A stretch of 64,000 nucleotides of DNA from an uncultured Muribaculaceae bacterium (GTDB lineage: Bacteria > Bacillota_I > Bacilli_A > RF39 > UBA660), in NCBI GenBank assembly GCA_964491535.1, contig CAZBGR010000002.1:3440-67439 (forward strand), in the 5' to 3' direction. Position numbers and translations under genes: made by a program. The notes beneath the pieces were generated by a model, which was given only the letters and a program-made list of their open reading frames with translations, ran no database searches and had not been told where the DNA came from. This document shows, piece by piece, positions 43,257 to 64,000 of this stretch (position 1 is its first letter; every line of letters begins with the position of its first letter).

Positions 43257-44383
43257 TTAATGTTTTAACCATTTATAATTTAAATATTGTTCTACTTGTT
43301 GTCGTTTTTGATCATTTAATACTGTATTATATAATAATATCTCAGCAATATCTCCTCTTAAATAATTAACTTTACCAGCCGCTGCCCCAATAGTATGACG
43401 AGTTCCAAAATCATCATTATAAGCATTAAGACCAAAGTTAACCGTTCCGGTAGTTGTTAATTTTTCTTGATTAATCCATATTTTAATTTCATTATCTTCC
43501 AAACTCTGAGTAGTACTTATAATATGATAATTATTCGTAGTATATGTATTAGCAGAAATTACATTTTGAAAATTCTCAGATTTTGATCTTCCTCCAGAGC
43601 GCAAAGTATTATTAGCTTGAAAATCAAGAAATATTTTAGAATTATTAGCTTCTATTGTGATATCAATATAAGAATTCCTCTCATTATGAGCTGTTTTATT
43701 ACCAACTAAAAATAAAGTTATTCCTTCTTTAGCCTTAAGAAGAATAGCGATATCATTTGGTAAAATTAAATAACTATTAGCAAAACGAACAATCGCTTGA
43801 TTATTAAGAATGTTGGTTTTATATATAGGCTTAAAACTATTATCAGATTGCGTAGCATGATTTTTTTTGGCGATAAATCATCCCATTGAGTTACCATATC
43901 TCCATTATCTAAATTAATAATATTTGCGGCATCTAAATGTAAAATCAAATTATTCTTAGGGAAAAGATAATAAGAAGATAAATTTTCGTCAGAATAAGAA
44001 AATTTAATATCATATCGATTATTACCCAACACATAAATATAAATTTTAGTGTCTAGAGGGATAGAAATATCATTTCTGGGATCAATTACTGGTTCAGTTA
44101 ACATTTCTTTAGAAATTAAATCTCCTAAAGTAATAGAAATTTCTTGACCAGGTTCATCAATATTGTCAATAATATCTCGATAATCATCAATATATAACCT
44201 AGTAGTAGTTTCAATGCTATTAATTAATAAATAATAGGCTTGCTCTTTTGCTTTATTGATATAATTCATCCCTAAAGAAATTACTATAGATGATAAAACA
44301 CCTAAAATAATAATAACGGCTAATAATTCAACAAGTGTAAAAGCATGATTATTAATTAACCTTTTTAATTTTATTTGTTTCAT
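43257..44383 (-). pseudogene. Type IV pilin-like (class III signal peptide) protein with C-terminal LamG-like domain, split by a +1/-1 frameshift at an A8 homopolymer
   Basis: N-terminal prepilin motif HAFTLVELLAVIIILGVL. The upstream ORF (43766..44383) and downstream ORF (43257..43604) join into one ~375-aa frame if the A8 run (T8 at plus 43861-43868) is A9; the joined frame was verified codon by codon. The C-terminus GDIAEILLYNTVLNDQKRQQVEQYLNYKW is Laminin_G_3-like. Confidence 0.6.
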
Positions 44384-53466: not shown

Positions 53467-53781
53467 TTAAAAATTACTCATTAATTCAATTATTAAATTC
53501 AGATTATCATCTTTAGCGGCAACATTTCTTTTTATCATATTACATTTTTGACAAAGATAAACAATCTTATAGTTATCCTTTTTACCCTTTTCAATGGCAA
53601 TTGGTTTTAAAAAACCATTGCAACTACATTCTCTATCACCAGGATTTAAATCAACATGTTTGGAATATAAACAATAAGGACAATGATCCCTTGAAGTATA
53701 ACCTAAAGGAATTACTAATTTCCCACAAACATCACACTTAAAACCTTCATCTACTTTTTTAAACTTAGCTTTCTCCATCAT
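53467..53781 (-). CDS. RNHCP-domain zinc-ribbon protein
   Basis: Four CxxC-like pairs with SRDHCPYCL, matching the RNHCP signature. Confidence 0.5.
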   Translation of the reverse strand: MMEKAKFKKVDEGFKCDVCGKLVIPLGYTSRDHCPYCLYSKHVDLNPGDRECSCNGFLKPIAIEKGKKDNYKIVYLCQKCNMIKRNVAAKDDNLNLIIELMSNF

Positions 53782-53792
53782 AATATTCTCTT

Positions 53793-55865
53793 TTAATCAT
53801 CATCACTAAAAAAGTCGTCAAAGAAAGCATCATCTGAAATACCTTTATCTACCTTATCATTAATAATTTTATCAAGATCAGCATTTATTTTAATTACTTC
53901 TTCTTTTGGTTTCTGATCAACTTTATTCACTGGAGGTTTCTCTTCTTTCTTTTCAACCACTGGTTTTTTAGGCTTTTCTACTATCCCTTTTTCTTCAGCT
54001 TCTAATTCAGCTATTTTAGTATCTATTTTTTTAATTAATTCATCAACGTTAAAAGATGAAGGAACATCTTTCTTTCCAAATAAAGAATTAGAAGATGGTA
54101 AAGGTGGGGTTGGTACAAAAGGTCTATCTTCACCTAACATATTAAACAAACTATTTTTTTTCTTTTCTTTAACGAAAGCTCTAATATCAAAAAGAGCGAT
54201 TGGTTTAGTAATTCGTTCTGGATAGTTAGGTTTAGCGCCCTTTTTATCACCATAACTATATTCAAACATTGGTAATAATTTAACTTTAAAAGGCCAACAA
54301 CGATCCTTTAATATAATAGCATCTTTAAATTTCAATCGTTGTAAATCACTAACCGTAATTAAAGGCCTAATTTGTTCTTTACCATCTTTACTCTTATCTT
54401 TTTCTTTAACTTCACCAGCTAGTTTACTTAACTCTTCTAAGGCTGATAATTCCTTAGTAATTAAATAAATAACATTCGCACAATTACCTTTTATTGTTTC
54501 TGCATTTTCCTTGCCATAAACTTGAGTTAATTGAGCATAATTTTGAATAATTAAATTAAAACGAATTAAACGAGATCGAGCAGCCGTAATCATTGTTGTT
54601 ACATCCCTTAAGGGTGGCATATTAGCAAATTCATCTAAAATAAAATTAGTTCTAATTGGTAATTTACCCCCATGAGCATGAGCAACATCAATTAAAATTT
54701 CATAACATTGTTTAACAAAAACAGTCGCTAAAGCATGATAAGTTTTCTTTTCATCTTGAATAATAATAAAAACAGCTGTCTTTTGCTTCCCAATATCACT
54801 CACTTCAAAATCACTATAAGATAACATTTCTGATAAGTGTTCTGTTAAAGCAAAAATCTTAATTTTTTGCCTAAACACTGATAAAATACTATCCCTTGTT
54901 TGATCAGGAGCATTAATCGCACTAGCAGCATTAATATAAACTGGTTTAGATGGATCTTTGTCCATAAAGTATTGCTTAATATAAGAAGCACTACCATACC
55001 TTTCTTCCCCAACAGATGTCATATAACTAATTGAATTTAAATTGATTTCATCTTCTTTAGCATCAGCAAATAACCCTAAAGCACAGGCCACAAAATAATC
55101 AGCTGAGGTGCTTTCCCAAAAGGGATCATCTTTACTTTTTTCATCATGGATTAAATTAAAGGCTAAATCATTTAACAATTCATTAGCTTTATCTGAACCT
55201 TGTTTATATAATTTATAAGGTAATATTAACGGATTCCATGCATTACCTTTTTCAGGATTACGAAGATTAATCAACACAATATTATAACCCTTTTCTAATA
55301 GCATACTCGCTGTTTCTTCGTATAACTCACCTTTAGGATCAGTTAAAATCATCGATTCACCTTTTTTAGCTAAAATCTTAATCAATGGTTTAACAACTAT
55401 TTCGGTTTTACCACTACCGGTAGACCCAATAATTAAGGAATGTGACTCGCCGTCATCTACCCATACTTCATTAGGTTCAGTAATTAAAGGTACCCCTGCA
55501 TATTCAAAAACGGGATCTAAAGGTCTTACTTTTTTCAAAACCTTTTTCATCTCTTCCTTTTTAGCCCATCTTGAATACCCACCCTTTTCTTTCTTACCTC
55601 TACTAATACCAATACCTTCTTCACGATCAAAAAAATATGAAGAAACAGCAGTTAAAATAGCTATAAAAGCAAAAAGATAAAAAACAATAGTAGCTGATAA
55701 AAACTCAGGAGTAAAAGCAGGTAATGGATTAAAACCATGGAATTCTTGAACCCGAGTTAAAGAAGCAGCATTTAAAACGCCTATTGATACTAAATAAAGT
55801 AAAAAAAAGGCAAAGACAAAAAAATACATGATATCTTTAGCTTCAGCTTTAAATTTAAGCTTCAT
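53793..55865 (-). CDS. Type IV secretion coupling protein (VirD4/TraG/TcpA family)
   Basis: Two N-terminal TM helices, Walker A GSTGSGKTE, TraG/TraD family core, and an acidic C-terminal tail DDAFFDDFFSDDD. GAGGTGA RBS. Confidence 0.85.
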   Translation of the reverse strand: MKLKFKAEAKDIMYFFVFAFFLLYLVSIGVLNAASLTRVQEFHGFNPLPAFTPEFLSATIVFYLFAFIAILTAVSSYFFDREEGIGISRGKKEKGGYSRWAKKEEMKKVLKKVRPLDPVFEYAGVPLITEPNEVWVDDGESHSLIIGSTGSGKTEIVVKPLIKILAKKGESMILTDPKGELYEETASMLLEKGYNIVLINLRNPEKGNAWNPLILPYKLYKQGSDKANELLNDLAFNLIHDEKSKDDPFWESTSADYFVACALGLFADAKEDEINLNSISYMTSVGEERYGSASYIKQYFMDKDPSKPVYINAASAINAPDQTRDSILSVFRQKIKIFALTEHLSEMLSYSDFEVSDIGKQKTAVFIIIQDEKKTYHALATVFVKQCYEILIDVAHAHGGKLPIRTNFILDEFANMPPLRDVTTMITAARSRLIRFNLIIQNYAQLTQVYGKENAETIKGNCANVIYLITKELSALEELSKLAGEVKEKDKSKDGKEQIRPLITVSDLQRLKFKDAIILKDRCWPFKVKLLPMFEYSYGDKKGAKPNYPERITKPIALFDIRAFVKEKKKNSLFNMLGEDRPFVPTPPLPSSNSLFGKKDVPSSFNVDELIKKIDTKIAELEAEEKGIVEKPKKPVVEKKEEKPPVNKVDQKPKEEVIKINADLDKIINDKVDKGISDDAFFDDFFSDDD

Positions 55866-55968
55866 TAATAATCACCTCAATATAAATAACATCTAATTAA
55901 ATTATAGCATAAAAAAGCATGATTTAGTAAAAAGCCACTTTAATAATCAGTTCAATCCATTCAATATT

Positions 55969-56661
55969 TTATATTTGATTATTTTGCTGCTCTTTATTTT
56001 TAATAAATATTACAAATATTACTATACCTATCCCAAGTATAATAATTAAAATAACTGAATAACTAATTTTGATTTCTTCATTAATGTTTATAAAATTGTT
56101 TTGCTTTGTTTTATCAAATGATATTATAATTTCCTTTTCTTCTGTATTTTTATTAGTGTTCCATATATAATCATTATTCTTTACTTCATCAGCATTATGT
56201 TCAACCACTTTGAAAATAGAATTAATTGTAATTTTAGCATTATTTATGGCTGGACGCTCTGGATCATCTTCATTGTATAAATAAAAATTTGAAGCTTTCA
56301 AAGTTATTATCTTACCATGTTCATCATAATTAATTTTTTCAAATAAATACTTTGCAGCATCCGTATTATCTTTATAATCTTGAATTGATAAAAACGTTCT
56401 TGATATTAATACTCCCCCCATTTCATTGTTATCTATCATTTCATATACATATAAACTTTTATCCGTTTCTTCAAAATAAGGTTCAAAAATAAAACCTATT
56501 ACCTCACTTTTATCGCTAAATTTATACATATTAAAGAAAGCATTTGTTTCCGTAGCTTTAATTTGTTCTTCAACCACTAAATCCTTGTTAATAATCAAAT
56601 TATATTCCACTGAACAGCCAGTAAAAATAATCAAAACTAAAAATAAAATAATTTTCCGCAT
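55969..56661 (-). CDS. Lipoprotein with C-terminal TM anchor (T4SS-associated, possibly VirB8/TcpC-like)
   Basis: Start re-set to the internal ATG (AAGGAGGT RBS) giving MRKIILFLVLIIFTGC lipobox; the upstream ORF-track extension overlaps the preceding gene. Coordinate accuracy is within a few nt. Confidence 0.55.
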   Translation of the reverse strand: MRKIILFLVLIIFTGCSVEYNLIINKDLVVEEQIKATETNAFFNMYKFSDKSEVIGFIFEPYFEETDKSLYVYEMIDNNEMGGVLISRTFLSIQDYKDNTDAAKYLFEKINYDEHGKIITLKASNFYLYNEDDPERPAINNAKITINSIFKVVEHNADEVKNNDYIWNTNKNTEEKEIIISFDKTKQNNFININEEIKISYSVILIIILGIGIVIFVIFIKNKEQQNNQI

Positions 56662-56692
56662 AAAAACCTCCTTATTTTTATTTTTTTGAAAA

Positions 56693-58330
56693 TTATTTAG
56701 AAATAATCCAAAAAGGTGTATTGTTAGTAGCTTTAGTCTGTCTAACAATAAGTTCAAAATCCCACTCCTTACATCTCTTTTCCACTTTAGGATCGGCAAC
56801 TAAAACTTGGCCTGAAGATGTTACCCCTCTTAATACAATATAATGCCCACCCTTAGTAAAATCTCCCGGCCCCATATGGGCAACAACTAAACTACCTTGA
56901 GATAATGCATTAATAATTCTCTGCAAATCTGAATTAGTTCTACTTACAGCTATTGATTTTAATCCATAATATTCAGGAGCAGCTATCATCATACTTCCAT
57001 AAGAGCCATTAGAAGTACAATAAGCAGGGCAAAATTTATCTACTATATTTATAGGTGTAACTTCCTTTCCAAGTAATGATGATATTACTATCGCTAATGA
57101 AGTTGGCCCACACCCCCATCTACTAATATTTCCTCTTCCAGAAGGATAAATATAAGGATAATTTGCCCATCTTGGATCATCTTGATTAAAATACATTACA
57201 TCTATAACTCCATCTGTAAAAATTACATTTATATAATATTGGCCACCACTATAACCATCACTTTTATTCATTAAATAAGCAAAAGCATCTCTTTGATCAA
57301 ATATTTCATCAATTTGGCGATTAAAAACAATCTCTTGTTCTTCTTTGCTTTTAGTAATTATATGTTCATTATAAGATTGGCGTGGTAAATAATTATCCCT
57401 TAAATAGTCTTTATAACGATTATAATTCATAAACTTAACCATTACAGGAAAAGCTATTTCTCCTTCTGAACAATTACTAACAAGGTATGATTGGGTCATT
57501 ATTCTGTAAATGTTTTCTAACAAATCTTCATCATATATTGTAGATAACTGTTTTGTAAAATAACTTTGACCTTCTTGGTTATATGCATATATTAATCTAA
57601 TTAAGTGTAATACATTGTTATATTTTATAACATCTTTAATGGTATCTTCAACTGTATAACCTAAATGGAGGGCAAAATCATTAAACAAATCCTTAGCCGC
57701 TTTACTTAATTCACTATATTCACCAGGTTGATCTGAAAAGAAACCAAAAAAGTCTTTAAATTTACCAAACGCTCCCTGCGAAAAACCTACGCACCTAGAT
57801 TCAAACCTAGTATCAACAAGATGACCTAATAATCCTTGCTGAGAACGTATTAAAGTATAGGCACTACCCAGTTCATCTACAGCTACTACATAAAAGTTTC
57901 TAATTTGCGATGTTTCTACAACATAATCATTATCATCAAATGTATATTCTTCTTCACTAACATTTTCATCATCATATCCCTCAGGATTAATATAATTAAA
58001 ATAATGAACCGTAGCAGATAATAGGGGGATATCCAATTCCCCCATGTCATGAGAAAAATCCCTATATCTTACATATTCTTCATCTAATTTTAGAAAGAAA
58101 ACCTCTTCTGATTTCTTAAAACCTTCACCTATAGTAAAATTAATAAATTTATCTAAACCCGTTCCTACCGCCTCAATTATATCTGATAAATACATAAACG
58201 GTACCATTATTAAAATTATAATTAATATCACTAAGGCAACTTTAGCAGCAATTACCGCTATAGCTGAAATGATAGGCCATGATTTAACTATTGTATGTAT
58301 CATCTTAGCTTTTTCAATAATTTTATTCAC
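56693..58330 (-). CDS. Membrane-anchored cell-wall hydrolase with C-terminal peptidase_C39-like (papain-fold) domain, analogue of TraG/CwlT/TcpG
   Basis: N-terminal TM; C-terminal WGCGPTSLAIVISSL...GGHYIVLRG Cys/His pattern. GTG start with AAAGGAGTGA RBS. Confidence 0.6.
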   Translation of the reverse strand: MNKIIEKAKMIHTIVKSWPIISAIAVIAAKVALVILIIILIMVPFMYLSDIIEAVGTGLDKFINFTIGEGFKKSEEVFFLKLDEEYVRYRDFSHDMGELDIPLLSATVHYFNYINPEGYDDENVSEEEYTFDDNDYVVETSQIRNFYVVAVDELGSAYTLIRSQQGLLGHLVDTRFESRCVGFSQGAFGKFKDFFGFFSDQPGEYSELSKAAKDLFNDFALHLGYTVEDTIKDVIKYNNVLHLIRLIYAYNQEGQSYFTKQLSTIYDEDLLENIYRIMTQSYLVSNCSEGEIAFPVMVKFMNYNRYKDYLRDNYLPRQSYNEHIITKSKEEQEIVFNRQIDEIFDQRDAFAYLMNKSDGYSGGQYYINVIFTDGVIDVMYFNQDDPRWANYPYIYPSGRGNISRWGCGPTSLAIVISSLLGKEVTPINIVDKFCPAYCTSNGSYGSMMIAAPEYYGLKSIAVSRTNSDLQRIINALSQGSLVVAHMGPGDFTKGGHYIVLRGVTSSGQVLVADPKVEKRCKEWDFELIVRQTKATNNTPFWIISK

Positions 58331-58353
58331 GGTATCACTCCTTTACATAGATG

Positions 58354-60138
58354 TTATAAGCCGCCACCACTACCAAATGATTCTAATTCTTCTTCTGTTA
58401 CCACTACATTTATTCTCATTCGCCTACTACCGCAAACAAACAAAGCCTCCCCTTGTCCATAACGCTTAATACTTTCCTTTTCATTATCATTTAAATCAAT
58501 TAACATCGACAAATCTTCAACTGCTTGTTTTTTTAAACCCATTACCATATAATAAGAAGCATTATCAAAGATAGCTTTACCTTGAGTAATAACATGCGGA
58601 TCAATAAAGTCACTAGGTTGTTGAGTAATAATAATTGTCCCCGTGTTATATTTCCTTGCCCTTCTTTGAACTTGAGCTAAAAATTCAGCCCCTAAAGTAT
58701 TATTGCTACCTAATAATACGTGAGCCTCATCAACTGATAAAACAGTATTAACTGATTTATCTAAACATAAACCCCAGGCATATTTTAAAATATTAAAAAA
58801 TAAAGCATTTCTAATATTAGTATCAGCATTCATTATTTCCCTTATATTAAAAACAATAAATTCTTTGTTCCCACTAATTGTCGTATGACCATCAAAATAA
58901 TACTTAAGTTCCTTAGTTAGAGGCCTTATTTTTAATTCTAAACGTTCCATAATATCTCGTTCATGTGTTTTTTCTTGATACTGCGCTAAACGACCTCTAA
59001 TGGTAGCATAAACATCTTTAAAAGTAGGGTAATCGGTTGTTTTAAAATTACTAAAATCAGTGTTAAAATCAATCCCAAAACGTTTATATGTATCTTGCAC
59101 TACTTCACTAAACAATGTTAAAACATCTTCTTCAATACCAGGATCGTAATACTTCATAAAAGCTTTTAAAAATTGAAGTGTTTTAGTTAAAATAGTATAA
59201 CCTAAACCTTGTTCTAATTCATCTTCATCAGCATCAATAATTATTTCTAAGGGATTAATCATTCCAAATTCGCCACCCTTACCTAAATCAATAAAATTAC
59301 CTCCATACATCCTAGTCATTTCATCAATTTCACCCTCGGGATCAATAACTACTATTTGATACCCATTACGAATATGACTTCTTAACATTAATTTAGCTAC
59401 TGTTGATTTTCCACTACCAGAAGCCCCTAAAATAACTAAATTAGCATTATGACGATTGTGTTCCTTTTTTATTTGAAATAAAAATTGATTAAAAAGAATA
59501 ACACCACCAGAAAAGTCAACCCCTAATAAAGTTGCTAAACCAGCATCCTTAATGCTATCAAAAATAAAAGGATACATAGCAGCCATTGAAATAGAAGGAA
59601 TCGCTGTTCCAATTCTATTTTCAACATCTTGTTTTGGAAAAATAGGTAACATTGATTTTAAAACCTTTTCTTGTTCAAAACGCAAAGGTATTGCCCTTAA
59701 ATCCATAGCAATTAAATAATTTTTGACATTTACTTTTTTTAATTCTAATTCTTCTCTAGTATCAGCTGTAATCATAATATGCATTTGAAAATCAAAAATC
59801 CTGGCTTGAGAAGAAGCTAACATTGAAATAAAATATTCTAATGATTCAACATCTAATCTAATTCGTTCTTGCATTGTTTTATCACGTTCTTCTTGATATT
59901 TAGCTTTTAAATCTACTATTTGCTTATTTATCATTTTTGATAAGTTACCAAAAGGAATAGGAATATGTTTAATAACAACCTTTATTCCCGACATAGTTGT
60001 TAAATTAGATAAAAAACCAACCGATACTGTTTTCGGATAAGAAATAACTGTTAATAAGGTCGAATACTTATCACTAATAACAAAATCATTGGCAAAAAAC
60101 TGCATTCCCTTAGGAGCAATTTGTGTTTTTATATTCAT
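58354..60138 (-). CDS. Type IV secretion ATPase VirB4 (TraE/TcpF/PrgJ-like)
   Basis: Walker A LGASGSGKST, Walker B LSVDEAHVLL, AAA_10/DUF87-like architecture; overlaps the upstream gene by 4 nt. Confidence 0.85.
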   Translation of the reverse strand: MNIKTQIAPKGMQFFANDFVISDKYSTLLTVISYPKTVSVGFLSNLTTMSGIKVVIKHIPIPFGNLSKMINKQIVDLKAKYQEERDKTMQERIRLDVESLEYFISMLASSQARIFDFQMHIMITADTREELELKKVNVKNYLIAMDLRAIPLRFEQEKVLKSMLPIFPKQDVENRIGTAIPSISMAAMYPFIFDSIKDAGLATLLGVDFSGGVILFNQFLFQIKKEHNRHNANLVILGASGSGKSTVAKLMLRSHIRNGYQIVVIDPEGEIDEMTRMYGGNFIDLGKGGEFGMINPLEIIIDADEDELEQGLGYTILTKTLQFLKAFMKYYDPGIEEDVLTLFSEVVQDTYKRFGIDFNTDFSNFKTTDYPTFKDVYATIRGRLAQYQEKTHERDIMERLELKIRPLTKELKYYFDGHTTISGNKEFIVFNIREIMNADTNIRNALFFNILKYAWGLCLDKSVNTVLSVDEAHVLLGSNNTLGAEFLAQVQRRARKYNTGTIIITQQPSDFIDPHVITQGKAIFDNASYYMVMGLKKQAVEDLSMLIDLNDNEKESIKRYGQGEALFVCGSRRMRINVVVTEEELESFGSGGGL

Positions 60139-60689
60139 AAAGGCATCACCGTCCCAAACTCTACCGACATTCCCCCACCCAAGAAATTATCAAGAATAAT
60201 TCTTAAATCCTCATTACTTGTTTGAGTAGCATTTAAACCACAGCCTGCCATCCCATTAATCAAGGATCTAATCTTTTTTTGAATAATTTCAGGGTCCTTA
60301 TCCTTAAACAAAATATAATATTCAGTATCAACCACATTATTAGCCATAAACATATTAGCTTTATTAATATCCTCAGTTATCAATTTTCTAAGTTGTGTCC
60401 CTTGAACGTTATTATATAAGAGTTGTAATTGAGATAAATAAAGATTAATATCAACCGGACGATCGGCTACTATTACCCAAAATTCATAATCAATCATATT
60501 GTAAAAATTACGAAGACCTCCAATAACATTCATTTGCGAATCCTCATCTAAAATAAATATATTTCGAGGACTAACTTTGATTCCAGTTACTTTAGTGTTA
60601 TCATCTAAAATTATCATCCCATTAGTTATATTTTTAACTGGTACCCAATCCTCAGTATATTTACTTTTTGGCCTCTTCTTGGTATTCAT
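60135..60689 (-). CDS. T4SS-associated hypothetical protein (184 aa)
   Basis: Translationally coupled to virB4 (ATGA overlap); no recognisable motif. Confidence 0.4.
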   Translation of the reverse strand: MNTKKRPKSKYTEDWVPVKNITNGMIILDDNTKVTGIKVSPRNIFILDEDSQMNVIGGLRNFYNMIDYEFWVIVADRPVDINLYLSQLQLLYNNVQGTQLRKLITEDINKANMFMANNVVDTEYYILFKDKDPEIIQKKIRSLINGMAGCGLNATQTSNEDLRIILDNFLGGGMSVEFGTVMPL

Positions 60690-60987
60690 TAATACACCAT
60701 CCTTTCCATATATAAAGTCTTCTTTCTGTTAAAAACTTTAAACCAGATTTAATAACTGTTAATACATTATGATAATTAGGAATCGGCAAAACTAAAAACC
60801 CAGCCAATAACCCCGGTCCTAAAATAATAACCGTTTTCAACAAATTATCAGTTGACAATGTAAATAACAATATTAAAGTTATAGAAACCCCTACCGCCAA
60901 TAATATTAAGTCATTAATCATAAAAACATTAAAAATTAAAGCCCCTCTTTTAGTATTAGCTGGTATCAAATAAGTATTTTTATTCAT
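60661..60987 (-). CDS. Small two-TM protein, TcpE/VirB3-like
   Basis: 108 aa with two hydrophobic helices; position immediately upstream of VirB4. Confidence 0.4.
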   Translation of the reverse strand: MNKNTYLIPANTKRGALIFNVFMINDLILLAVGVSITLILLFTLSTDNLLKTVIILGPGLLAGFLVLPIPNYHNVLTVIKSGLKFLTERRLYIWKGWCINEYQEEAKK

Positions 60988-60993
60988 TCACTA

Positions 60994-61485
60994 TCACCTT
61001 TCCTTTTTATTATTAATGATTTCCAATAACATTTGGTTTTCTTCATATTGTTTTATCAAATTATATTTTTCACAATCATCTGGACAAATATTTTTTACTT
61101 TTTCAAATTCCTTTTCTATACAATCTAAAGCCTCTTTAACTTTTTCATATTCATTTTTAACCCTTAAATAATAATCCTTTAACGAAATTACTATACCCTT
61201 TTGATGATCAATTATAAAGTTTTTGTTTTCATCAAGAAGAACCTCATTATTAGTATTTATAGTTACCATTGCGTTAGGATGGTTAGCAAACCATATGTTA
61301 ACAATTTTAAATTGATTTTCTATACTCTCAAAATAAATTTTAATTAATTCTGCCCTTTCATAAACTTTACTAAAAAGATTAGAAAAAACAGCATATTTAC
61401 TTCCCCTTTTATTTATTTCTATTAATAACTTTTTAAGTCTTTTTTGTTGATGTTTTAATAAATGTTGATATTGACTTGGATTCAT
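60994..61485 (-). CDS. T4SS-associated hypothetical cytoplasmic protein (163 aa)
   Basis: No recognisable motif; sits in the conjugation cluster. Confidence 0.35.
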   Translation of the reverse strand: MNPSQYQHLLKHQQKRLKKLLIEINKRGSKYAVFSNLFSKVYERAELIKIYFESIENQFKIVNIWFANHPNAMVTINTNNEVLLDENKNFIIDHQKGIVISLKDYYLRVKNEYEKVKEALDCIEKEFEKVKNICPDDCEKYNLIKQYEENQMLLEIINNKKER

Positions 61486-61588
61486 GCTTTATTTCCTTTC
61501 ATTAATTGAATGTATCTAAATTTTAATGAAATATATAAATAATTTAAAAGTTTTGAATTCCATCATTTAGTCAAATTTACTGTTATAC

Positions 61589-63388
61589 TCATACTACCCC
61601 ACCCCAATCTCCCGTTGTTTTAGTAGATGACGATGAAGAAGTTGCAGCACCAGCAGCTTTAGTTACTTTTTCTGCATCTTCCCTAGCCCTAATAAGATCA
61701 TACATTTCTCCATCTTTTTTATGTGCCTTTTTAACAGTAGTAAAGCGTTCTTCAGCTGTTTTGGCACTACCTTCTAATTTTTTGAATTTTATCAATTCTT
61801 CCGTATATTTATCTTCACTAAGGCTTCCTGTTCTAAATTTATTTTCTGTAACAGCAAAATCATTAGAAGCATATTTTAATTGTTCTTTAAGAGCTTGATA
61901 ATTTCTGTTTGCATTTATAAAACTAGCAGAATCATAAGCGTTTTGTTCGGCATTAATTTTAGCCATAGCTTGTCCCATGCTATCCTCACCCCTATTTTCT
62001 GCATCTTTTTCTGCAGTAAACATTTGCTTCCATATGTCATTAGTAGCCTTTTCATCATCTTTTTGTTGTTTAAGATAGGCTCCCCTTTGGGCTTCTGCTT
62101 GCCATTTATCCGCTGTTCTTCCCAATCCCCATCGATACCCTTCCCCTTTTATTCCTTTACCAACATCACCTACTGTTTTAAATGGAGATGTTAAAGCAGC
62201 TTTACCTTGCCCTAAAACATTGCCTTTAGCACCCCAAACCCCTCCAGCTCCAGACTTTATTCCGGACCAAGCTCCACCTAAAATACTTTTACTTCCACCT
62301 TCAATGCCACCTGTTATTCCCCCAGCTATACCACCTAATGCCGTAGCTGCGCCACCTAAAGCTAAACCTGTACCAAAACTGGCCGCTCCTTTTAAGGCCT
62401 TACCTAAAGTTCCAAAGCCCATATCTTCAACCCCAAATAAATCAGCAATCATCTTTGGAACATCTTTTGCAAATAATAATAACCCCACAATTACTAAAAT
62501 CTTAAGAAAGAAACCCTCTTCTTTCAAATTTACAAATTCTTCTTGAATTACATCAAATGCAAAAACCATAAATGCTATTGCTGCCATCCTTAAAAATAAC
62601 AATACATAAGTATCAACGCTAAGTTTTTGCCATTTGCTAAAAAATCCCGACTCCGATGATTTTGGATCAATATAAGACATAACAGCTATTGGAGCTATCA
62701 TTTGTAAAAAGGCTAGTTTTACAGTCCTAACAGCTATATCCAAACTATAAACCAGTAACATTATTAAAACAAAACCGCCTGCTGCTAAGGAAAATATCCA
62801 TAAATATTCGTATTTAAAATCATCACCCATCCTAATTTTATCATTTAAAACCTCTTGCATAGCAGAAAGGTTTGTTATGTCCTCTAGTAATTCATTTAAT
62901 TCGTTTTCACAATAGGACGGAGCATCTTTATTGCACTTTAAAAAAGATGATAAGGTTTCTTTTCCTATCTCCTGCCCTGCAGAAATATTAGTTTCGTTAG
63001 TTCCCATAAAAATTCTCATAAAAATATTTCTCTTGCCTTCAGGATCAATAAGAACCCTTTGAATTCGAAACCCATAACTAAATATAAAAGGAATTAATAC
63101 TATCAAAGCAAGTGCAATCATCGACCTTTGAATAATCTTGCCAAACCCCTGATTTTGATCGGTTAACAAATCTGGATTTACAACCGTCGTAATTAAACTA
63201 AAAGCCAATCTAAACAACATAAATAACGCTAATAAGGCATATATATTTTTAGCAAAACCATCGATTTTACCTTCAAAAAGGTCTAATACTGACACTTTTA
63301 CAATTAAATCATATATCCTTGGAATCATTCCGTATATCAAACGATCCAAAGCAAAAAAGATAGTTCGAAGGACACTTACAAAAAACAT
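61589..63388 (-). CDS. VirB6/TrbL-like polytopic membrane protein with glycine-rich and coiled C-terminal region
   Basis: N-terminal half has multiple TM helices; C-terminal GKALKGAASFGTGLALGGAATALGG... Gly-rich tract, then a charged tail. Confidence 0.55.
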   Translation of the reverse strand: MFFVSVLRTIFFALDRLIYGMIPRIYDLIVKVSVLDLFEGKIDGFAKNIYALLALFMLFRLAFSLITTVVNPDLLTDQNQGFGKIIQRSMIALALIVLIPFIFSYGFRIQRVLIDPEGKRNIFMRIFMGTNETNISAGQEIGKETLSSFLKCNKDAPSYCENELNELLEDITNLSAMQEVLNDKIRMGDDFKYEYLWIFSLAAGGFVLIMLLVYSLDIAVRTVKLAFLQMIAPIAVMSYIDPKSSESGFFSKWQKLSVDTYVLLFLRMAAIAFMVFAFDVIQEEFVNLKEEGFFLKILVIVGLLLFAKDVPKMIADLFGVEDMGFGTLGKALKGAASFGTGLALGGAATALGGIAGGITGGIEGGSKSILGGAWSGIKSGAGGVWGAKGNVLGQGKAALTSPFKTVGDVGKGIKGEGYRWGLGRTADKWQAEAQRGAYLKQQKDDEKATNDIWKQMFTAEKDAENRGEDSMGQAMAKINAEQNAYDSASFINANRNYQALKEQLKYASNDFAVTENKFRTGSLSEDKYTEELIKFKKLEGSAKTAEERFTTVKKAHKKDGEMYDLIRAREDAEKVTKAAGAATSSSSSTKTTGDWGGVV

Positions 63389-63405
63389 TTTTCACATCCG
63401 TTCTA

Positions 63406-64000
63406 TTAATTAAATATACAAAGCATAGGATTAGCCTTTTCGACTATTCCTGCTAAATATGCCAAATAAAACATAAGTTTTATTAAAGATGGTAATAAAA
63501 ACAAAATAACAGCAGCTAATAATCTTTTCATAAAATTAGATTGAGATTTTTTCATCGCTTCATCATCAGAAGCAAAAGTTGCTTTAGCCAAATCTAACGA
63601 ACCTAATAAAATAACTAATATCGGAACAATTAGCATTATCATCCTATATATATCTTTTAAAATGTTCCCTTCTTCATCTTCAAAATCCTGACATTGAACA
63701 GCAATAGAATCTTTTCTTTTTTTTTGATATGGTGATGTTGTTGTTTCATCTGAAATTTCCACTTCGGAAGGGTCAGTATATTTATCAACTTCTTCATCTT
63801 TAAGTTTTAAAACAGAAGGTGAAACTATATAAAGTACACCTGCACGCCCACTAGGTGAAGATGGTTTAGTAGCATAAACATATATTCTAGGAGGGCAAAA
63901 CAAAGCCGGTTCTTCATTAGCATTATAAAAATTTGATGGCTGGAAATTTGAAATGTCATATTTTATATCTGCACTATTACTTTTAGGTTCTTTTAACGAT
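63406..64000 (-). CDS. Membrane protein with two C-terminal TM helices, T4SS-associated; N-terminus lies beyond the window end
   Basis: The frame stays open to position 64000 (own translation ...SLKEPKSNSADIKYDISNFQPSNFYNANEEPALFCPPRIY...). The ORF-track M at 63903 is an internal TTG. Confidence 0.5.
   Translation of the reverse strand, partial: SLKEPKSNSADIKYDISNFQPSNFYNANEEPALFCPPRIYVYATKPSSPSGRAGVLYIVSPSVLKLKDEEVDKYTDPSEVEISDETTTSPYQKKRKDSIAVQCQDFEDEEGNILKDIYRMIMLIVPILVILLGSLDLAKATFASDDEAMKKSQSNFMKRLLAAVILFLLPSLIKLMFYLAYLAGIVEKANPMLCIFN

Follow-up and report, generated by a model that had tools for sequence, protein, structure and literature searches.

A type IV secretion gene cluster of RF39-type Bacilli that is probably a fixed, relaxase-less chromosomal system and not a mobile element

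[quoted passage not shown] The stretch, here called the window, comprises 64,000 nucleotides (contig CAZBGR010000002.1, positions 3,440 to 67,439) from an uncultured bacterium of the UBA660 lineage, and the cluster consists of nine closely packed open reading frames (ORFs), all intact in the ORF list, on the minus strand of 53793-64000. A first-pass annotation had described a conjugative module of Gram-positive type and taken it for an ICE-like source of moving cargo. The analysis confirms that the cluster is a real and intact Gram-positive-type (monoderm) T4SS. It also indicates that the cluster is in all probability a fixed, vertically inherited, relaxase-less chromosomal T4SS, lineage-wide in genome-reduced RF39-type Bacilli, and not an ICE. 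The description that fits the locus best is that of a co-opted chromosomal T4SS without a relaxase, in a new variant that spans RF39.

The first line of evidence comes from the relatives. A one-genome-per-species scan returned at least 558 confirmed matches, including Bacillales bacterium UBA660 and Clostridium sp. CAG:1193 and CAG:710, and the relatives of the C-terminal VirB4 ORF are, where named, metagenome-assembled genomes of 'Bacilli', 'Mollicutes' or 'Tenericutes'. According to one paper UBA660 is a family within RF39, an order of genome-reduced bacteria. In a library of sequences grouped at 50% identity the VirB4 family has one full-length representative at 70%, followed by sequences at 46% and 41% and by others at 35% or less; named VirB4 proteins outside the clade come from Thomasclavelia/Coprobacillus and Solobacterium. 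Because VirB4 identity is at least 70% within the clade and 46% or less beyond it, the VirB4 clade is, to judge from sequence comparison, tight, isolated and not common to other taxa.

Across some 80 species-level genomes and some 45 contigs from metagenomes the gene order hardly varies. In relatives it begins with a secreted 220-aa protein, a large surface protein, DUF5411 and a CpaB/RcpC-like protein (slots 1-4), continues with a PF00437 ATPase, two polytopic proteins and a hydrophobic pilin-like protein of 55-75 aa (slots 5-7), then with one or two proteins of about 123 aa, a 327-aa protein and one to four VirB2-like paralogues (slots 8-10), and closes with the TrbL-like, VirB3-like, VirB4-N, VirB4-C, variable hydrolase, anchored protein and VirD4 genes (slots 11-17). 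The flanks consist of housekeeping genes: upstream lie TrmL, QueH, thioredoxin-like proteins, LeuS and CinA, and downstream, in many species, rhodanese, DedA/VTT, RmuC, YuzI, DUF3603 and TrpS, or, in one sub-lineage, CoA-enzyme activase genes. In the relatives nearest to the window (VirB4 88-89% identical) PFOR, NDK and RecG stand 3′ of VirD4, and the PFOR gene of the window is found four genes further on.

Moreover, the cluster has diverged along with chromosomal genes. Comparison of 36 species in pairs shows that VirB4 identity is correlated with identity of the flanking RmuC (Spearman rho 0.74, Mantel p ≤ 0.0005), and the correlation between VirB4 and VirD4 is about the same (0.79); for the ATPase of the pilus-like module and TrmL the value is 0.88 (p = 0.0002, n = 11). 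Between the window and locus L088 the synonymous divergence (dS) is about the same for VirB4 (1.07) as for PFOR (0.92), with protein identities of 88% and 65% respectively. The ratio of nonsynonymous to synonymous divergence (dN/dS) is 0.03-0.08 for VirB4-C, 0.06-0.12 for VirB4-N, 0.12-0.21 for VirD4 and 0.26-0.39 for the TrbL-like protein, the overall range of 0.03-0.39 having been obtained at saturated dS. Co-divergence with chromosomal genes together with low dN/dS therefore points to an old and functional chromosomal set, and not to a recent or decaying element.

The search for mobility genes gave a consistently negative outcome. When the MobP3 relaxase encoded by the nearest plasmid relative was used as a tblastn query, the window and about 90 loci gave no match (E > 1), and no relaxase family was seen among 20 window ORFs (34.9-64 kb), in L002-L006 and L087-L090 or in the recurrent flank clusters, other MOB classes having had no dedicated profile search. 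The same ORF, gene-call and flank sets, which do not take in the 5.8 kb of the source contig outside the window, contained no integrase or DDE recombinase, and about 125 related loci, taken together with as much as 10 kb of flanking sequence, showed no recurrent relaxase, integrase or transposase cluster. The window contains no tRNA gene over its full 64 kb. A repeat search round the cluster, the upstream end of which is outside the window, found only short imperfect AT-rich repeats and no credible direct or inverted repeat. These results agree with the earlier statement that relaxase, integrase and att repeats are missing from the window; the relaxase or recombinase that had been expected in the flanks did not appear, and the skew check that had been proposed showed no step at 53.8 kb, either in skew or in base composition. 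As far as these searches reach, the cluster has lost, or never had, a relaxase and a recombinase. The ICE reading is thus unsupported, because the flanks hold neither gene and because the gene set is syntenic in relatives between housekeeping neighbours, a finding that the first-pass annotation had itself named as pointing to a chromosomal secretion system.

The module had also been thought to extend past 64000. It does so by about 420 bases of coding sequence. The sequence past 64000 (about 620 bases) was taken from two assemblies of the same species, L001 and L090, and the two-TM (transmembrane) protein that had been noted as running past the window end proved to be a 337-aa pilin-family protein, its gene being complete in L001. 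A promoter-like region of about 120 nt upstream of this gene is conserved between L001 and L090; counts in the promoter/terminator scan were no higher than in shuffled sequence. Just upstream of the region, beside an ACCTCC-TTTTT-GGAGGT hairpin, L001 has two direct copies of TAGGGTGACAT, 26 nt apart, which are absent from L090 and may represent either an operator or a coincidence.

At its other end the cluster is bounded by the VirD4 stop codon (53793). The genes downstream of VirD4 on the same strand are all housekeeping genes, namely those for RNHCP, thymidine kinase, a small RelA/SpoT protein, ArgS, PFOR, YqeG, YqeH, DnaE, PcrA, VanY and LigA. The RNHCP gene, which had been left as a possible member at this edge, starts 11 nt past the VirD4 stop with no terminator between, and is therefore probably co-transcribed with the cluster. 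It is not a conserved member: in relatives RNHCP is unlinked to the cluster, the one other copy being in L110 on the opposite strand and upstream of the pilus module. RNHCP and the thymidine kinase gene (tdk) were considered as cargo and rejected, neither being a conserved neighbour.

The identity of the two ATPases rests on profile matches. The C-terminal VirB4 ORF matches P-loop_TraG (E = 3e-15) and AAA_10 (E = 2e-11) in Pfam, and positions 294-893 of NF045975 with E = 4e-103, below the equivalog cut-off of that model (345.9 versus 590); the score against NF045971 (CD1110 family) is 171, the cut-off being 325. The 184-aa ORF that precedes it matches positions 96-271 of NF045975 (E = 6e-14), and on the identical 184-aa protein of L001 PF26593 (TraC-like) is annotated. 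Since the two ORFs cover successive parts of the same model, VirB4 is encoded here in two ORFs, the stop of the first overlapping the start of the second by 4 nt (ATGA). Frameshifting or pseudogenisation of VirB4 was considered and rejected, because the split with its overlapping start and stop is conserved in all relatives and in plasmid pBMB67: VirB4-N is a separate ORF in all of about 80 relatives and in the plasmid (29% identity), and the relatives of VirB4-C, which form more than 7200 protein clusters at 90% identity and are 77-100% identical, are all 594-599 aa long, so that the split is conserved. VirD4 matches T4SS-DNA_transf (2e-50), TrwB_AAD_bind (1e-26) and TraG-D_C (9e-25) in Pfam, and its 315 bits against NF045973 (CD1115 family) exceed the 250-bit cut-off. 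In the profile check that had been suggested for the two proteins both gave matches, that of VirB4 being strong but below its equivalog cut-offs. Walker motifs are intact in both ATPases and the motif columns of VirB4 are invariant.

VirD4 has, in addition, a distinctive C-terminus. After a variable acidic and lysine-rich linker the protein terminates in the tail DDAFFDDFFSDDD, and in all 71 of the 71 full-length relatives the C-terminus reads D-D-x-F-F-D-D-F-F and then has one to four further residues, most of them acidic. Neither the remaining proteins of the window and the loci nor plasmid VirD4 contain the FFDDFF motif. The tail, which is invariant after a hypervariable linker and specific to the lineage, is likely to be a docking motif for a conserved partner.

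The remaining proteins are assigned with varying firmness. The VirB4, VirD4, hydrolase, lipoprotein and VirB6/TrbL-like genes named on the minus strand at first pass are all intact ORFs with profile matches, the lipoprotein being recognised by its lipobox and the TrbL-like protein by sub-threshold matches: TrbL_4 in Pfam (E = 0.003) and NF045848, NF045889 and NF045890, among them the Mbov_0396 (26.1 versus 70) and pLS20_p028 families. Orthologues of the TrbL-like protein are annotated with PF19597 (TrbL_4), and the protein is built of an N-terminal membrane domain that varies, a linker rich in Gly and a charged C-terminal domain that is conserved. The 'small cytoplasmic and two-TM proteins' of the same annotation do exist as genes; the 184-aa ORF among them is the VirB4 N-domain, and the 108-aa protein is VirB3/PrgI-like. 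Indeed, the VirB3-like profile aligns with a 'PrgI family' protein of pBMB67 (hhalign E = 1.2e-4), a YLIPxNxK motif is common to both, and the gene is at the same position in 68 loci. The 337-aa protein has a secreted, Cys-containing N-terminal domain and a C-terminal two-TM pilin domain, and is called VirB2-like because this domain places it in the 'sm' family, of which 37 of the 71 members match T4SS_pilin (PF18895) and one matches TrbC/VirB2.

The hydrolase carries its Peptidase_C39_2 domain (2e-15) at residues 377-514, behind an N-terminal TM helix; across species this slot is filled by M23, SpoIID plus VanY or C39_2 domains. The lipoprotein has a G15-C16 lipobox, which does not vary among 25 members of its family, and a C-terminal TM helix. 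Its start is probably the ATG at 56661, and a longer ORF from a TTG at 56799 is probably not used; 230-aa gene calls are also present in L173 and L174. The lipoprotein has no Pfam, NCBIfam or PDB profile match, and a word-based search detects three homologues; by position it is a candidate for a VirB8-like (NTF2-fold) wall-spanning protein, its AlphaFold2 (AF2) model having a confidence score (pLDDT) of 47.6, too low for use. The lysine- and glutamate-rich 163-aa protein occurs only in L001 and L090, which are of the same species, among about 170 loci, other relatives having in its place a spacer of 27-53 nt or, in two cases, unrelated ORFs of 175-179 aa. It has no Pfam or NCBIfam family match, and its AF2 model, likewise too low in confidence for use, is mostly helical (pLDDT 57).

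Table 1. Positions of the cluster genes and of associated features. Positions are those of the window unless a locus is named; TM, transmembrane.
Feature	Position	Strand	Length	Description
VirD4-type coupling protein	53793..55865	-	690 aa	Two N-terminal TM helices; Walker A GSTGSGKT
VirD4 tail motif DDxFFDDFF(x)D/E	53793-53840			Also in VirD4 genes of L002-L086; preceding linker hypervariable, low-complexity
Lipoprotein	55969..56661	-	230 aa	C-terminal TM anchor; 'anchored protein' slot between hydrolase and VirD4
Cell-wall hydrolase	56693..58330	-	545 aa	Membrane-anchored; C-terminal Peptidase_C39_2 (papain-like) domain; VirB1-equivalent slot
VirB4 ATPase, C-terminal two thirds	58354..60138	-	594 aa	Intact Walker A (GSGKST) and Walker B (DEAH)
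VirB4 N-terminal domain	60135..60689	-	184 aa	Separate ORF
VirB3/PrgI-like protein	60661..60987	-	108 aa	Two TM helices; 29-nt overlap with next ORF
Helical cytoplasmic protein	60994..61485	-	163 aa	Species-specific; between TrbL-like and VirB3-like genes
VirB6/TrbL-like protein	61589..63388	-	599 aa	Polytopic membrane protein
VirB2-like pilin-family protein, 3′ part	63406..64000	-	337 aa (full length)	First gene of the operon; complete in L001, 202-1215; start codon near window-equivalent 64419
Copies of TAGGGTGACAT	L001 52-62 and 78-88			Window-equivalent ~64533-64569
RNHCP gene	53467-53781	-		Downstream of VirD4
Diverged segment, hydrolase	56693-58330; L090 6268-7737			Window compared with L090
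Diverged segment, TrbL-like and pilin-family	62774-64419; L090 191-1900			Window compared with L090
Pilin-like ORF	43766-44383	-	205 aa	Type IV prepilin N-terminal methylation motif
Following ORF	43257-43604	-	115 aa	End resembles lectin/LamG-type tails of pilin-like proteins
DUF6273 proteins (examples)	L008 17683-18792; L012 5727-6833; L016 17542-19059			Membrane-anchored; paralogues in ~40 species

In most relatives the T4SS set directly follows a Tad/VirB11-like pilus module (L002-L086 and L093-L172), which lies some 5-10 kb upstream of VirB4. The Tad identity of this module is only partly supported. Its PF00437 ATPase scores 111 bits as VirB11 and 97 bits as a TadA-type protein, both below the cut-offs, and the CpaB/RcpC matches are weak. 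The two polytopic proteins have no T2SSF match, no prepilin peptidase was found in the module, and three of its families have no PDB profile match. The consensus of the 327-aa protein has the appearance of a receiver-like domain joined to a degenerate ParA/MinD fold, as in TadZ, with no significant profile or PDB match. Because hhalign comparison of this protein and of the two polytopic proteins with annotated plasmid proteins was not significant (E 0.01-0.24), the labels TadZ, TadB and TadC are positional only. Elsewhere in the window, a 205-aa protein has a prepilin methylation motif (N_methyl E = 6e-6; ...HAFTLVELL...) and is followed, after a gap, by a 115-aa ORF; the two may be a disrupted or two-part pilin-like gene, separate from the T4SS cluster.

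Comparison of the window with L090 gives an indication of how parts of the cluster change within a species. VirB4 is 99% identical and the DNA is 92% identical from the middle of the TrbL-like gene to the end of VirB4. The hydrolase of L090, however, is an M23 peptidase instead of a C39_2 protein, its N-terminal part being 20% identical, the N-terminal ~340 aa of the TrbL-like protein are ~50% identical whereas the C-terminal ~260 aa are ~93% identical, and the pilin-family protein of L090 has strongly diverged from that of the window. This looks like an exchange of surface-exposed parts by cassette-like recombination. In about 40 species, paralogous membrane-anchored DUF6273 proteins ending in GSGTxxDPY(I/V) sit among the pilin-family genes and directly 3′ of VirD4; there are none in the window.

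Among known systems, the closest mobile relative is, by protein similarity, the apparatus of pAW63/pXO2-type plasmids. The earlier parallel with pIP501, ICEBs1 and Tn916 holds for the general layout, and it is the pAW63/pXO2 type that is the closest plasmid relative. Best plasmid matches (28-30% identity) are to Bacillus thuringiensis plasmids of the pAW63/pXO2/pBMB67 type and to a plasmid of a marine Mycoplasmatota isolate, and tblastn of window and L005 proteins against pBMB67 gave 20-30% identity with E values from 4e-6 to 6e-79. These plasmids of the Bacillus cereus group (MPF_FATA) share with the cluster a CD1115-family VirD4, a TrbL-like protein, a PrgI/VirB3-like protein and a two-piece VirB4 (an N-domain ORF and a DUF87 ATPase). 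With the RF39 relatives, though not with the window, pBMB67 shares in addition a SAF/CpaB-like protein, the PF00437 ATPase, to which papers on pAW63 give the name VirB11, and two polytopic proteins; pBMB67 also has an AAA ATPase. On this evidence the RF39 cluster is shown, as far as such similarity goes, to descend from the same kind of machinery. The plasmids differ in that their modules are in another order, a MobP3 relaxase stands beside VirD4, replication and partition genes are present, and the VirD4 of pBMB67 type is without the FFDDFF tail; the RF39 cluster is chromosomal, and none of these plasmid genes was found with it.

The mycoplasma ICE (CDS5 VirD4, CDS17 VirB4 and CDS16 membrane protein; Mbov_0397/Mbov_0396) supplies the best NCBIfam model for VirB4, with its cut-offs failed. 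This element is a monoderm T4SS of minimal kind, able to move chromosomal DNA as well, and differs from the RF39 cluster in being mobile, with a fused VirB4 of 894 aa and a DDE transposase, and in having no VirB1-like hydrolase; the cluster has the hydrolase, and no transposase was found. Tn916, ICEBs1, pIP501 and the streptococcal 'type IVC' T4SS share the general layout of VirB4, anchored hydrolase, anchored protein and coupling protein, but are mobile, with relaxase and recombinase, and neither VirB2-like pilins nor a PF00437 ATPase module is described for them (PMC12857230). A recent T4SS review describes Gram-positive systems as having no VirB11 homologues (PMC12857230), and describes both Gram-negative elements in which a T4SS is combined with a type IV pilus and systems that transfer chromosomal DNA independently of a relaxase. 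The IncI R64 thin pilus and PAPI-1 are of the former kind, a channel being co-encoded with a pilus of type IV-filament type that makes or stabilises cell contact; they are diderm, mobile and relaxase-encoding, have other pilus types, and are likened to the RF39 cluster by their arrangement.

The closest functional analogue is, by analogy, the co-opted chromosomal T4SS of the Patescibacteria. This system is chromosomal, lineage-wide, derived from MPF_FATA and mostly relaxase-less, and has VirB2-like paralogues (bioRxiv 10.1101/2025.01.22.634366); in a Saccharibacterium it is reported to be essential for epibiotic growth (Quinonero-Coronel et al., bioRxiv 10.1101/2025.01.22.634366). Both systems are chromosomal and lineage-wide, with no relaxase found, have VirB2-like (T4SS_pilin) paralogues and reside in hosts with reduced genomes, and the Patescibacteria combine dependent lifestyles with type IV pili alongside the T4SS. 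The RF39 system differs in phylum, in the joined Tad/VirB11-like module, in the two-piece VirB4 and in the VirD4 tail, and the two are likened by description. Among the papers searched, none was found that links RF39 with T4SS, conjugation or competence.

On this analogy we tentatively prefer to see in the cluster an organ for interaction with a partner cell or host, which would deliver cargo other than DNA and serve a dependent lifestyle. In such a mechanism the VirB2-like, TrbL-like and VirB3-like proteins would form a membrane channel, the assembly of which would be energised by the two-piece VirB4, and the exchangeable hydrolase would open the thin cell wall. VirD4 would recruit the substrate through its cytoplasmic domain while its FFDDFF tail docks a conserved partner, and the substrate would be pushed into the contacted cell. 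Contact would probably be made by the Tad/VirB11-like pilus module, which is in the same operon in most relatives, and the rapidly exchanged surface modules may adjust or vary the way in which the contacted cell is recognised, or serve to escape phages and antibodies. The system would not transfer itself.

Several points weigh against this interpretation, whether as to inheritance or as to function. RmuC adjoins the cluster and could in principle travel with it, and the assignment of the relatives to RF39 rests on the names UBA660, CAG:1193 and CAG:710 and on one paper, not on phylogeny. The loci were collected through VirB4 itself, so their counts do not give the prevalence within RF39. The pilus-like and T4SS halves are not adjacent in a minority of loci and in the species of the window. 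Beyond the promoter-like region L001 and L090 differ, and in L001 a divergent gene starts about 200 nt upstream of the first gene. Finally, the searches for a relaxase or recombinase span the window and the loci with their flanks, and such a gene elsewhere in the genome is possible.

The alternative with the greatest weight, which we regard as a reasonable if doubtful one, is that the cluster is a chromosomal organ that moves DNA between RF39 cells with no relaxase in cis, either by mobilising small elements that have their own relaxase and oriT or by distributive transfer. Models for relaxase-independent transfer are provided by mycoplasma chromosomal transfer, pXO16 and Streptomyces TraB. 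VirD4 retains the full architecture of a type IV coupling protein, including the all-alpha domain of TrwB, the machinery shares its ancestry with conjugative plasmids, and the nearest NCBIfam models are those of mycoplasma ICE VirB4 and membrane proteins. Hypervariable, swapped surface parts would fit mating-pair recognition or exclusion, the recombination protein RmuC is often a neighbour of the cluster, and transfer systems without a relaxase or without oriT are documented in the literature. Set against this, no locus has a candidate relaxase or oriT, the near-universal retention of the cluster, its dN/dS of 0.03-0.08 and a conservation above that of PFOR would be unusual for a gene-exchange device, and the analogous relaxase-less system of Patescibacteria is read as co-opted for other functions.

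It is improbable that the cluster is a DNA-uptake machine like Helicobacter ComB or the archaeal Ced/Ted systems, importing DNA for repair or as a source of nucleotides. VirB4 and VirD4 have weak NCBIfam matches to CedB and CedD, RF39 is reported in one paper to have no de novo synthesis of nucleic-acid precursors, a thymidine kinase gene lies two genes downstream in the window genome, and a pilus module accompanies the T4SS in relatives. The CedB and CedD matches are, however, far below threshold, and tdk is not a conserved neighbour. To our knowledge, T4SSs known to import DNA are without a VirD4 coupling protein, whereas the VirD4 of this cluster is conserved and has a dedicated tail.

An ICE with its relaxase, integrase and att sites beyond 64000 is very unlikely. 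It would account for the conjugative ancestry of the T4SS genes, for a cluster that is open at the window end, and for a divergent gene close upstream of the first gene in a region where the two strains differ; it is opposed by the constant order between housekeeping flanks in about 125 loci, by the failure to find a relaxase, recombinase, tRNA or credible repeats, by a composition not distinct from the rest of the window, by the co-divergence with chromosomal genes and by the isolation of the clade, with no close copies in other taxa. That the cluster is a decaying, functionless remnant of an ancient integrated element is scarcely credible: no relaxase was found and the pilus module is separated in this genome, but this reading is refuted by the selection data (dN/dS 0.03-0.39), with nine intact genes, invariant motifs and retention of the cluster in hundreds of species with small genomes.

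A practical consequence is that annotation tools which look for VirB4 together with VirD4 will wrongly call this locus an ICE. The finding also extends the relaxase-less, co-opted monoderm T4SSs from Patescibacteria into Bacilli, and provides a counter-example to the textbook view that Gram-positive T4SSs are without VirB2-type pilins and VirB11-type ATPases. A bolder proposal, which we consider unlikely on present evidence, is that RF39 Bacilli obligately need contact with a bacterium or with host epithelium, that pilus and T4SS together form the essential organ of this interaction, and that the swapped modules set the partner while the tail docks the cargo. If this were true, the organ would represent a convergence with, or a relative of, the T4SS needed by Saccharibacteria for epibiotic growth.

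Overall, RF39 bacteria occur widely in the guts of humans and animals; their genomes are small, and none has ever been cultured. The strong purifying selection on this cluster in hundreds of species points to an obligatory cell-to-cell activity, be it delivery to a partner or relaxase-free exchange of DNA. Either activity would help to explain the RF39 lifestyle and would suggest routes to culturing these organisms, for example by co-culture with a partner.

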